A stretch of DNA of 64,000 nt. It comes from Phycisphaerae bacterium. GTDB lineage: Bacteria > Planctomycetota > Phycisphaerae > Sedimentisphaerales > Anaerobacaceae. Made by a program: the position numbers and the translations under genes. Below are positions 8,874 through 11,651 of this stretch, piece by piece (the stretch's first letter is position 1; each line of letters begins with the position of its first letter). The notes below the pieces were generated by a model. It was not told the DNA's origin. It saw only the letters and a program-made list of their open reading frames with translations, and ran no database searches. Location: positions 46,187 through 110,186 of the forward strand of contig JAAYBV010000065.1 of NCBI GenBank assembly GCA_012744475.1, read 5' to 3'.

Positions 8874-9611
8874 TCAAAGGCCGAGGAACTGGATGGCGAG
8901 GCCGCAGAGCAGAATGGTTGCCCCGGCCAGGGCATGGCTGTACCGCTGGATGGCCCTGAACGGAAGGGAGTTGAACCCGGCCCGCCCGAGCATCACGGCC
9001 GCCAGCATGGTCCCCAGGGTGGCGGTTCCAAAGACCGCCGTGACGACGATCAGGTCGAGCAGACCGCTGCTGGCCGCCGGATACATCAGCAACGGGATGA
9101 GAGGCTCGCATGGGCCGAAGACGAAGATCACGAACAGGACCCAGGGGGTAATGGTCTTGCCGCCGTCGAGGTCGTGGACGTGCGAATGCTCACCCAGATG
9201 CGCGTGTGAGTGCAAATGTGGCGGGACGGCGTCGGTCAGATGCGCGTGAGGCTCAGGGTGTGGATGCACATGCTGGTGCGGATGGTGGCGATACACCAGC
9301 CTGATTCCCCAGACGAGATAGGCCAGACCAAAGGCAATCAACAGCCAGGCCGCCACGTTCCCGCGGAGCGACTCGGCGCCCACCAGACCTTTGAGGGCCA
9401 GCCCGAACGCGACGCCGACGAACCCGAGGACGACAGAGCTGCCGATGTGACCGACGGCACAGATGGAGGTGATCAGCAAAGTCCTGGCGGCGGACCACTT
9501 GCGCGCCCATGCCATCATGATAAACGGAAGGTAGTGGTCCGGCCCCAGCAGCGTGTGCAAAAAGCCGATGGAGGCAGCCGTCACCACAAGGGTTCTGAGT
9601 TCCTGTGTCAA
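8874..9611 (-). CDS. His-rich nickel/cobalt transporter-like membrane protein (NiCoT/UreH/RcnA-like)
   Basis: SIGFLHTLLGPDH motif, His-rich loop HHPHQHVHPH...HLHSHAH, GPCEPLIP; TTG start. Confidence 0.8.
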   Translation of the reverse strand: MTQELRTLVVTAASIGFLHTLLGPDHYLPFIMMAWARKWSAARTLLITSICAVGHIGSSVVLGFVGVAFGLALKGLVGAESLRGNVAAWLLIAFGLAYLVWGIRLVYRHHPHQHVHPHPEPHAHLTDAVPPHLHSHAHLGEHSHVHDLDGGKTITPWVLFVIFVFGPCEPLIPLLMYPAASSGLLDLIVVTAVFGTATLGTMLAAVMLGRAGFNSLPFRAIQRYSHALAGATILLCGLAIQFLGL

Positions 9612-9675
9612 AGTAGTTGTTCCCGTCCTTCTGCGGGACCGAATGACCGATGGCTGAGGGCACCCGATTCAGCGG

Positions 9676-9704
9676 TTGACAACCGACCCTGCACGCCATA
9701 TTAA
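9676..9704 (+). promoter_or_regulatory. Sigma70-type promoter for the cupin gene
   Basis: TTGACA-N17-TATTAA. Confidence 0.6.
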
Positions 9705-9749
9705 CGTCGAGGAAAACCGGTTCAAGCAATTCTTTCATAAGGAGAGCTA

Positions 9750-10085
9750 ATGGCATCATCACAAAAAGCCCTCACTATCAACCTGGACAACAAACCCGAG
9801 TACCAGAGGCTGCTCGAAGGCGAGCCACAGACGTGCGGGATGCGATCGGGACGCGTCTACCTCGAAGCAGGGAAATCCTGCGGCCAGCACAGCACCAAGG
9901 ACCACGAGGAACTCCTGGTCTTCCTGGCGGGCCAGGGCGTGGTCCACATCGGCGGAGGCGAGGACCTCCGGGTAGGACTGGGAAAGGTCGCCTACATTCC
10001 CCCAAGGACCTTGCACGACGTCGAGAACACGGGTGCCAAGCCGCTCGCGTACATCTACTGCGTCGCCCCCGCACGCATCGAGTGA
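9750..10085 (+). CDS. Cupin domain protein
   Basis: HST..HEELLVFLAGQG and YIPPRTLHDVEN cupin motifs; AGGAG RBS. Confidence 0.88.
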   Translation: MASSQKALTINLDNKPEYQRLLEGEPQTCGMRSGRVYLEAGKSCGQHSTKDHEELLVFLAGQGVVHIGGGEDLRVGLGKVAYIPPRTLHDVENTGAKPLAYIYCVAPARIE

Positions 10086-10131
10086 TTCCGTGCCAAGCCG
10101 GCCCGACAAGGCGGATTCTCGGAATCGGCGC

Positions 10132-10159
10132 TTGCCAATTCGCGCCGGCGTGGTATAAT
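10132..10159 (+). promoter_or_regulatory. Sigma70-type promoter with extended -10
   Basis: TTGCCA-N16-TATAAT with TG at 10151-10152. Confidence 0.65.
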
Positions 10160-10164
10160 GGAGA

Positions 10165-10303
10165 ATGTAGGTATACGCTCTTTTCTTCTATATCTTGGTT
10201 TTGTTTCTGGGACGGCTGTATAGATCATACCTTTGCTCTATATTCGGTAATGCACAAGCCGTCTCCAAAGAGCCGAAGTCTCACCGCTTCGGTTCTTTTT
10301 TTT
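10165..10303 (+). ncRNA. Candidate small RNA of about 140 nt, unknown family
   Basis: Between a strong promoter and an intrinsic terminator; internal stem GACGGCT/AGCCGTC and TATAG/CTATA; no credible ORF in the transcript. Confidence 0.4.
10269..10303 (+). terminator. Intrinsic terminator
   Basis: AGAGCCGAAG-loop-CTTCGGTTCT followed by T8. Confidence 0.8.
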
Positions 10304-10589
10304 GGCCCGGCCCAGAGTGATTGCGCCGGCTGATCCCGAAAGAACCCCGAAGACCCGAGAAGCGGCTGCGTTGGACCTCAGCCCGGCAAATCGTCTCCCC
10401 CCAGAATAAAATCGCGACCGCGAGCGTCTGTTGTCTTGATCGCTATCCAGATTGACGGTTCGTTGCGTCCAGGGAAGACCGCGATGCGCCACACGACGAC
10501 AGGTCCGGTCCCACCAGAGGAGCTGTGCCGGCCGCAGTGCTGCAATTGGGGCCCGGGGCTTCCAATCGAAGAGGCGAATCTACGCTCGG

Positions 10590-10618
10590 TTGACCGGACG
10601 CCGACCGATGGGTATACT
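10590..10618 (+). promoter_or_regulatory. Sigma70-type promoter
   Basis: TTGACC-N17-TATACT upstream of ATG 10668. Confidence 0.6.
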
Positions 10619-10667
10619 GAAGCGGGTTGGCTGTAATACGGTTCCTTGCTCTGTTGGAGAAAAGCTC

Positions 10668-11651
10668 ATGGACCCTGAAAAAGACAGCCACGTGCAGCAA
10701 TTCAAATGGCACATCGTTGTCGTCGGCATCACCTTGGCCGCAGTCATCGCTCTGGCGCTGTTCACTCGGCTCTTCGAGAACACCGAGACGTTGCGCAATC
10801 TTGTGTTTCTGCTGGGCTCGCTGATCTTCCTCGGGGCGCTTCTGGCGATGCTGGCGCGCGTCTCCGGGATCGTCGAGACGCTTCGCGACAACAGCGCCAA
10901 GATGGCGGAAGCCGCCAAGGCTCTGGAGGACATCCGCAGCGATCTGATCCGGATCAATCACAGCACCCGCGTCAGCGACACGGTCAAAGCGATCGCGTTC
11001 CGCGAAGAAGACCGGCAGTCGTTGCGTGAAGCCGTCTTCGAAAAGCTCAAACAGCGGGACTTCGACGGCGCCTACGAGATCATCGACGAGATCGGCATCC
11101 ACTCGGGCTACCGGACGCTGGCGGTCGAGTTGCGTCAGCAGGTGGACGGCTACCGCAATGCCACCGAGGACGAGCGAATCGACCAGGCCATCGAGCACAT
11201 CAAGACGCATTTCCGCAACGCCCAGTGGGCCCGGGCCAGCATCCAGATCGAGGCGCTGATCAAAGAGTATCCTTCGTCGGAGAAGGCCAAGGCCATGCGC
11301 CAGCAGTTGCTCGACCACAAGGAGGAGCGGAAGCGGATTCTCATGGCCGCCTGGGACGACGCCGTCCAGCAAGGGGAAACAGACCGCAGTTTGGAGATCC
11401 TTCGCGAGCTGGACATGTACCTGACGCCGAACGAAGGACTGGCGTTGCAGGAGGCGGCCAAGGACGTCTTCAAGACCAAACTGCACAACTTGGGCGTGCA
11501 GTTCGCGATGGCGATTTCCAACAAGGAATGGGACGAGGCGCTGGAGGTCGGTCAGCAGATCATTCGCGACTTCCCGAACAGCCGCATGTCCACCGAGATC
11601 AAGGAGAAGCTCGACGTCCTTCGCCAGAACGTCGAGGTGCAGCACGCGTGA
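10668..11651 (+). CDS. Membrane-anchored helical (coiled-coil/TPR-like) hypothetical protein
   Basis: GGAGA RBS; two N-terminal TM segments then helical repeats (e.g. WDEALEVGQQIIRDFPNS). Confidence 0.75.
   Translation: MDPEKDSHVQQFKWHIVVVGITLAAVIALALFTRLFENTETLRNLVFLLGSLIFLGALLAMLARVSGIVETLRDNSAKMAEAAKALEDIRSDLIRINHSTRVSDTVKAIAFREEDRQSLREAVFEKLKQRDFDGAYEIIDEIGIHSGYRTLAVELRQQVDGYRNATEDERIDQAIEHIKTHFRNAQWARASIQIEALIKEYPSSEKAKAMRQQLLDHKEERKRILMAAWDDAVQQGETDRSLEILRELDMYLTPNEGLALQEAAKDVFKTKLHNLGVQFAMAISNKEWDEALEVGQQIIRDFPNSRMSTEIKEKLDVLRQNVEVQHA

Follow-up and report, generated by a model that had tools for sequence, protein, structure and literature searches.

The window analysed here is a 64,000-nt stretch of Phycisphaerae DNA. 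Between a cupin gene and the gene for a membrane/TPR protein, it contains a short interval in which the GC content falls to 38% (trough at 10150-10249) against a background of about 62%. Does this interval hold a gene of its own, and what might the product of such a gene do? A first-pass annotation had read it as a candidate stand-alone, trans-acting small RNA (sRNA) of roughly 40% GC, with which the trough agrees. All the features it listed were recovered at the positions given. Positions 10132-10303 contain a near-consensus sigma-70 promoter, an RNA of about 138 nt with 42% GC (genome about 63%; 62.6%) and an intrinsic terminator.

Promoter and boundaries of the sRNA gene

A consensus scan located a -35 hexamer TTGCCA (10132-10137) on the plus strand, followed after a spacer of 16 nt by an extended -10 element, TGgTATAAT (10151-10159). 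This promoter, which the first-pass annotation had already described as TTGCCA-N16-TATAAT with an extended -10, matches the consensus at 11 of 12 positions and carries the TG extension. Promoter-like sites of this kind numbered two in the 3 kb scanned against 0.7 expected from shuffled sequences, and the sRNA promoter is one of the two. The sRNA itself occupies 10165-10303 of the plus strand as a full-length covariance-model match of 157.5 bits, with its start placed at 10164-10167 and its 3′ end inside the U run of the terminator.

The promoter is retained with the RNA. Across 105 distinct homologues, the best -35/-10 pair scored at least 9/12 in 103 with a spacer of 16-18 nt, the commonest -35 forms were TTGCAA (64) and TTGCCA (13), and TATAAT was exact in 88. 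The 20 nt upstream of the promoter are 72% A+T in these homologues, and the model start falls 5-10 nt 3′ of the -10 box in 77 of the 105. Judged from its sequence, the promoter is probably strong and of the housekeeping type, and it looks constitutive.

At the other end lies an intrinsic terminator (10267-10303, plus strand), a 13-bp hairpin (10267-10298) that follows an A tract and whose 3′ arm runs into the U8 (T8 at 10296-10303). A T8 terminator had been annotated here. The run is U7-8 across the family. Directly beyond it, the minus strand contains another terminator-like hairpin (10345-10360), near which no end of a minus-strand gene was noticed.

Homologues and distribution

The sRNA is single-copy in its own 5.75-Mb genome, which is 99.6% complete. 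BLAST recovered it from 11 of the 12 genomes of the genus (77-98% identity) and from three other genera (72-75%). Within the genus, pairwise identity was 0.45 in the 5′ flank and 0.43 in the 3′ flank; it was 0.81 in the -35 block, 0.54 in the spacer and 0.93 in the -10 block, and then 0.93 in the block holding the pyrimidine tract and UUGGUUU, 0.84 in the stem and loop and 0.87 in the terminator. The block covering the gap from the -10 box to the start site and the first 12 nt or so of the RNA, a variable 5′ leader (10165-10176, plus strand), reached 0.60 in the genus and 50% over 14 sequences. Hexamers and RNA are thus kept while flanks and spacer drift, which is the pattern expected of a promoter followed by an RNA gene. 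Absence from relatives had been named beforehand as an outcome that would speak against the annotation; instead, 105 homologues were found, and within the genus the contrast between the seed block (93%) and the flanks (43-45%) points to selection on the RNA itself.

Two covariance models were built, from 14 and 40 sequences, and both were calibrated. With the first, full-length matches were obtained in 60 of the 151 sampled genomes of the order, one per carrying genome except for two in G041. The latter (C50:7327-7451 and C69:11480-11604; 66 and 64 bits) represent the sole duplication seen. The second model added two families of the order, f7 (9/14 genomes) and f8 (3/3), and gave no match in 131 genomes sampled from other orders of the class. 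Complete genomes in one contig are among the carriers in f7 and f8. A single match in the phylum sample (G343, 31.7 bits) was marginal, lacked the motif and the architecture, and was rejected.

When public genomes were scanned with a degenerate pattern, 80 loci were obtained, of which the second model accepted 64 as family members (62 full-length and two cut at a contig end); the other 16 were chance hits in other phyla. The metagenome-assembled genomes holding these members are labelled Sedimentisphaerales, Phycisphaerae, Planctomycetota or ‘uncultured Pirellulales’, apart from three odd or unlabelled bins. One full-length copy (115 bits) is on JAIVYN010000161.1, recorded as ‘Candidatus Aegiribacteria sp.’; mis-binning of this contig or an erroneous label is the probable cause. 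The 105 distinct full-length homologues are 125-146 nt long and have 29-47% GC regardless of genome composition. With orders taken from record names, the family appears to be confined to the Sedimentisphaerales (Phycisphaerae, Planctomycetota), whose members are anaerobes.

Secondary structure and conserved motifs

The 139-nt transcript has a minimum free energy of -40.4 kcal/mol (z = -4.5 against 200 dinucleotide shuffles). In the predicted fold, the pyrimidine-rich 5′ part is largely unpaired, as the first-pass annotation had proposed, while a stem GGGACGG(CU)/(AG)CCGUCUC and the terminator are formed. The 5′ part contains the near-invariant tract UCUUUUCUUCU (10179-10189, plus strand), a putative seed that is predicted to be accessible: its mean predicted unpaired probability is 0.74, compared with 0.42 for the remaining RNA. 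The 10-nt UCUUUUCUUC is exact in 89 of the 105 distinct homologues and near-exact in most others, and the tract reads CUCUUUUUCUUCUU in families f7 and f8. That the most conserved part is also the most accessible is a hallmark of the seeds of base-pairing sRNAs. After a short variable spacer follows a second conserved single-stranded block, UUGGUUU (10195-10201, plus strand). In the family alignment of 40 sequences, its TTGG shows conservation of at least 90%. This block is absent from the more distant families f7 and f8.

The long-range stem, P1, pairs GGGACGG (10209-10215) with CCGUCUC (10259-10265), both on the plus strand, and the CAAAG on its 3′ side provides the A tract of the terminator stem. 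All seven P1 pairs are formed in 62/62 full-length sequences of an independent set, and two of them alternate among AU, GU and GC, that is, with compensatory AU<->GC changes. The terminator showed compensatory double changes at 11 of its 13 pairs among 64 homologues. The covariation score was 0.427, compared with 0.219 for shuffles (0 of 500 reached 0.427) and at most 0.11 with slid partners; the set comprised 64 sequences outside model building, whose alignment was nevertheless fitted to the model. MAFFT and RNAalifold gave the same helices on 14 sequences. Covariation had been suggested as a check on the annotated fold, and P1 and the terminator passed it. Of the two stems that had been drawn, GACGGCT/AGCCGTC is therefore retained, whereas TATAG/CTATA is confined to the source genus and finds no support elsewhere.

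P1 encloses an A/U-rich region of about 40 nt (10216-10258, plus strand), within which AUA (10227-10229), UUUG (10232-10235) and UAUAU (10239-10243) are each at least 90% conserved. RNAalifold on 84 sequences found no conserved inner helix or pseudoknot in this loop. A second pairing site and a protein-binding site are candidate roles for it.

Comparison with RNA families and coding potential

The first-pass annotation had recognised no Rfam family, and a search of the whole window against Rfam 15 likewise gave no match at the gathering threshold. Among 14 diverse homologous loci, matches at E<=0.01 were to neighbouring tRNAs only. The best hit in the sRNA at E<=10 was STnc240 (RF02074), with 33.4 bits against a gathering threshold of 55; it aligns only to the terminator (10242-10304), and membership was rejected. 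What the two RNAs share is a terminator: a GC-rich hairpin and the U run after it. A divergent 6S RNA (RF00013) was also rejected, as a true 6S RNA lies at G000:C13:46286-46470 (63 bits). Like 6S RNA, the sRNA is small, mostly one copy per genome, widely conserved and driven by a strong housekeeping-type promoter; it differs in having no closing stem with central bubble, in its single-stranded 5′ end and in a 3′ end formed by a terminator. The possibility of a divergent SRP RNA (RF00169) was discarded because the SRP RNA of the genome is encoded elsewhere and scores above threshold. A literature search found no description of this sRNA and no regulatory RNA reported for the Sedimentisphaerales lineage. 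It thus appears to be the founding member of an undescribed RNA family.

We also considered whether the locus encodes a very small protein or gives rise to a dual-function RNA. A 41-codon frame with a TTG start is open at 10195-10320, but it traverses the terminator, homologues carry indels of 1, 5 and 6 nt inside it, and no start in the region has a preceding Shine-Dalgarno (SD) sequence. No reading frame is conserved among the homologues, whose longest closed ORFs range from 0 to 28 amino acids and have no peptide in common. We give a coding function next to no credence.

Neighbouring genes and RNA libraries

Is the RNA instead a part of a neighbouring transcription unit? Such a cis-linked element could derive from the cupin mRNA, as its processed or read-through 3′ UTR, or could serve the downstream gene as an attenuator or a leader of the terminator type. 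The gene upstream of the RNA and outside it encodes a cupin of 111 amino acids (PF07883; 9750-10085, plus strand), and no terminator was predicted between its stop (10085) and the RNA. Such a cupin gene is the RNA's most frequent neighbour: of 103 loci, 56 have one immediately upstream in the same orientation, at a gap of 80-391 nt, and the other 47 have different upstream neighbours. The cupin linkage is common, not obligatory. The cupins are 53-94% identical across genera, and in several genera the cupin gene is preceded by one for a DsbD_2-like membrane protein (8874-9611 of the window, minus strand).

On the other side, the window encodes a membrane/TPR protein of 327 amino acids that weakly matches YfiO. 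The gene in this place changes with the lineage, being a TPR protein in the genus itself and DUF1559 pilin-like proteins, QueA or an ECF sigma factor elsewhere (at least four unrelated families), and at the loci examined it starts about 150-650 nt after the end of the RNA. Because the downstream genes differ between lineages, the sRNA is not the leader of one gene, in line with the first-pass annotation, which had thought a leader unlikely. A riboswitch or an attenuator would be expected to have a constant downstream gene or pathway, and the families found there are unrelated. A link to the adjacent nickel cluster was tried and rejected: a NikR-type box GTGTTAC-N12-15-GTAACAC (three mismatches at most) was present in only 3 of 110 loci, and none lies near window position 10100.

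The sRNA stretch was found in 20 public sequencing runs. Six of these (X15-X20) are metatranscriptomes and belong to five studies; the others sequenced DNA of wastewater, activated sludge and anaerobic digesters. Contigs of four RNA runs (X15, X16, X18 and X19) were placed on window positions 9500-11200; they give no strand, ends or abundance, and uncovered parts of this 1.7-kb stretch do not amount to silence. In X16, a single 173-nt contig covers 10170-10342 and neither neighbouring gene is covered; two 79-nt contigs lie just beyond, at 10313-10391. In X18, a 177-nt contig covers 10176-10352, there is a gap over the promoter, and separate contigs represent the cupin (9772-10110) and the downstream gene (10602-11099). 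The X16 and X18 contigs, which start 3-12 nt past the deduced start and do not include the promoter, hint at a separate transcript. In X15 and X19, on the other hand, contigs bridge the cupin and the sRNA, and every contig that reaches the terminator continues 40-85 nt past it, which would suit a cis-linked element. For the downstream gene, the RNA contigs of two runs start at 10447 and 10452, which places them about 140 nt before a promoter-like site at 10590-10618, and that of a third run starts at 10602. That gene had been assigned a separate promoter at 10590; the pattern exists (10/12), but in view of the starts at 10447-10452 it may not be the sole promoter.

The bridging contigs and the frequent cupin thus stand against a near-consensus promoter kept in 103 of the 105 homologues, the variety of upstream genes, downstream genes that are unrelated, distant and, in the window, equipped with a promoter-like site of their own, and the contigs of X16 and X18 that are separate from the cupin. 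We consider a cis-linked element very unlikely. The stand-alone sRNA with its own promoter and terminator that had been proposed is well supported by its conservation in 105 homologues, the covarying stems, the varied downstream genes, the lack of a conserved ORF and the separate contigs in two studies.

The pyrimidine tract and its possible targets

The 16S rRNA of the genome ends with ...CACCUCCUUUCUA. When CUCUUUUCU of the sRNA was compared with the 16S 3′ tail CUCCUUUCU, 8 of 9 positions were identical, and both sequences can pair with ribosome-binding sites (RBSs) of the GAAAGGAG type. The tract can pair with extended GAAAGGAG(C) RBSs, which are frequent in the genome, with one G-U pair, and its perfect partner would be AGAAGAAAAGAG. 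The difference from the 16S tail is a C-to-U change, by which the central G-C of the SD duplex becomes G-U, so that the perfect partner at this core is AGAAAAGAG and not AGGAGG. The likeness extends over a short tract only and does not indicate homology.

Exact complements of the 12-nt core were no commoner in the genome of origin than those of a reversed control. Besides the antisense of the gene itself, the only perfect 12-mer was at C118:67305, upstream of no gene on that strand, and it was dismissed as a target. This sole other perfect copy of the 12-nt block (G000:C118:67290-67330), whose minus strand reads CUCUUUUCUUCU and then UUUGUUUC, lies about 200 nt upstream of an amidohydrolase-like gene starting near 67092. 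This copy could be accidental or could serve as another site for a factor that recognises the tract.

A search of 4,089 start regions with RNAduplex gave 514 hits at -18 kcal/mol or below, compared with 240-422 for reversed or shuffled seeds, with a tail that was barely heavier. By a run-length score of at least 9, the start regions of 122 genes matched the real tract, 140 the reversed tract and 115-130 the tract-preserving shuffles. Real, reversed and shuffled tracts all favour start regions over gene interiors, by a factor of 6-10 in pairing frequency; this enrichment is partly circular because SD likeness was used in calling the starts. These scans show the generic RBS affinity of any uninterrupted pyrimidine tract. 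No specific or conserved mRNA target was found by the scans of the genome of origin and the comparison of tsf. The 5′ UTR of tsf (EF-Ts) provided the best perfect-match candidate near a start, GAAAAGAGC, located 20-28 nt upstream of the AUG; this site is retained by the four closest species but has decayed in all others, and it was rejected. The first-pass annotation had envisaged a trans-acting sRNA with a U/C-rich seed for purine-rich RBSs. The seed is borne out in so far as the tract is invariant, predicted to be accessible and similar to an anti-SD sequence; its targets are not, as the scans are generic and the tsf site is unconserved.

The downstream neighbour was rejected as a family-wide target as well: scores of at least 9 occurred in 25 of 93 loci on the downstream plus strand, 18 on the upstream plus strand and 7 on the minus strand, and these represent ordinary RBSs. 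In the window, the downstream gene starts with an ATG at 10668; its RBS, GGAGAAAAG (10656-10664), stands 3 nt in front of this codon and is able to make nine pairs, including one G-U, with CUUUUCUUC of the sRNA. At this place, GGAGAAAAG or GGAGAGAAG is also found in other genomes of the genus. Going by its sequence, this site could be a local target or merely a typical RBS.

A repeat with at least seven identical copies (G000:C5:43951, C20:7582, C29, C77:16941, C103 and C112:64448 among them) contains, about 85 nt before an ATG (MSYNHLT...), the sequence GATATAGAAGA, which is perfectly complementary to 11 nt of the sRNA (10184-10194). The part of this match that falls in the spacer is unconserved outside the genus. 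Some copies are situated at contig ends, and therefore the repeat is probably an insertion sequence.

Proposed function of the sRNA

A search with the Hfq family PF17209, which did detect Hfq in control genomes, found none in this genome (99.6% complete); hence the sRNA does not belong to the Hfq-dependent type. Two properties expected of a trans-acting sRNA are present. It has an independent transcription unit, with a predicted promoter and terminator conserved in 103/105 homologues and contigs starting after the promoter in two studies, and its UCUUUUCUUC is a conserved and accessible seed. Our leading interpretation, to which we give an even chance, is an independently transcribed gene for a non-coding regulatory RNA that acts in trans, independently of Hfq, by occluding RBSs. 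A strong housekeeping-type promoter would produce an RNA of about 138 nt ended by the intrinsic terminator. The single-stranded 5′ arm would present UCUUUUCUUCU, followed in most lineages by UUGGUUU, ahead of the 7-bp stem closing the A/U-rich loop and, last, the terminator hairpin. The accessible tract may pair in trans, without Hfq, with purine-rich RBSs or the first codons of mRNAs, and this pairing would block 30S binding, a step proposed because the tract nearly copies the anti-SD tail of the 16S rRNA. Of this picture, the gene with its boundaries, structure and conservation and its occurrence in RNA libraries are shown, whereas trans action, RBS pairing and repression are inferred. The stem-loop and the terminator would confer stability and possibly a handle for a protein.

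An invariant tract of 11 nt and a conserved loop of about 40 nt exceed what a seed needs, and a protein partner may therefore be involved. In its full form, this leads to a different function, in which the tract and the A/U-rich loop bind an RNA-binding protein and titrate it (as a sponge, a decoy or an RNP scaffold), with no mRNA pairing. Ribosomal protein S1 and the cold-shock-domain proteins are candidate partners; the genome encodes CsrA and six cold-shock-domain proteins but no Hfq, and cold-shock-domain proteins prefer U/C-rich single strands, as CspB of Bacillus subtilis does. A protein-binding RNA would account for conservation of at least 90% in UCUUUUCUUCU, UUGGUUU, AUA, UUUG and UAUAU, including a loop that no helix explains, and it fits both the constitutive-looking promoter and the failure of a specific mRNA target to emerge. 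However, each motif occurs singly, whereas the known sponges CsrB and RsmZ have many repeats; the RNA has no GGA motifs for CsrA; and no partner gene is linked to it except the cupin, which has no known RNA-binding role. We hold this for possible but doubtful.

A more far-reaching interpretation is an order-specific global governor of translation initiation. The RNA, constitutively made, would act as an anti-SD decoy that competes with the 30S subunit at extended GAAAGGAG-type RBSs, or would titrate a translation factor that binds pyrimidine tracts, such as S1 or a cold-shock protein. As a decoy, it would affect many mRNAs, with a preference for A-rich RBS variants (for example AGAAAAGAG) that are poor binding sites for the ribosome. 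We regard such a global role as unlikely.

Among known systems, the RBS-occluding sRNA of our leading interpretation most resembles RsaE/RoxS (RF01820) and the streptococcal CiaR-dependent csRNAs, Hfq-independent RNAs of Gram-positive bacteria with anti-SD-like pyrimidine seeds. It shares with them a length of about 90-150 nt, a promoter of its own for the housekeeping sigma factor, an intrinsic terminator, an unpaired SD-complementary pyrimidine motif and conservation at the level of order to phylum. It belongs to a different phylum, matches them in neither sequence nor structure (nor anything in Rfam at threshold), and adds the A/U-rich loop closed by a 7-bp stem. Its seed is U-rich and forms one long tract in the 5′ tail, whereas their motifs are C-rich and lie in loops.

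Regulatory RNAs of Planctomycetota have, to our knowledge, hardly been described. The present one defines an RNA family of 105 distinct members with clear boundaries, a covariation-supported stem and a near-invariant, predicted accessible motif, which is ready for Rfam. The metatranscriptomes in which it occurs come from anaerobic digesters and bioreactors, where these polysaccharide degraders live. The sRNA offers a first handle on post-transcriptional control in an Hfq-less lineage of the PVC group, and the mimicry of the anti-SD sequence, if true, would be relevant to the tuning of translation initiation in bacteria whose RBSs are long and purine-rich.
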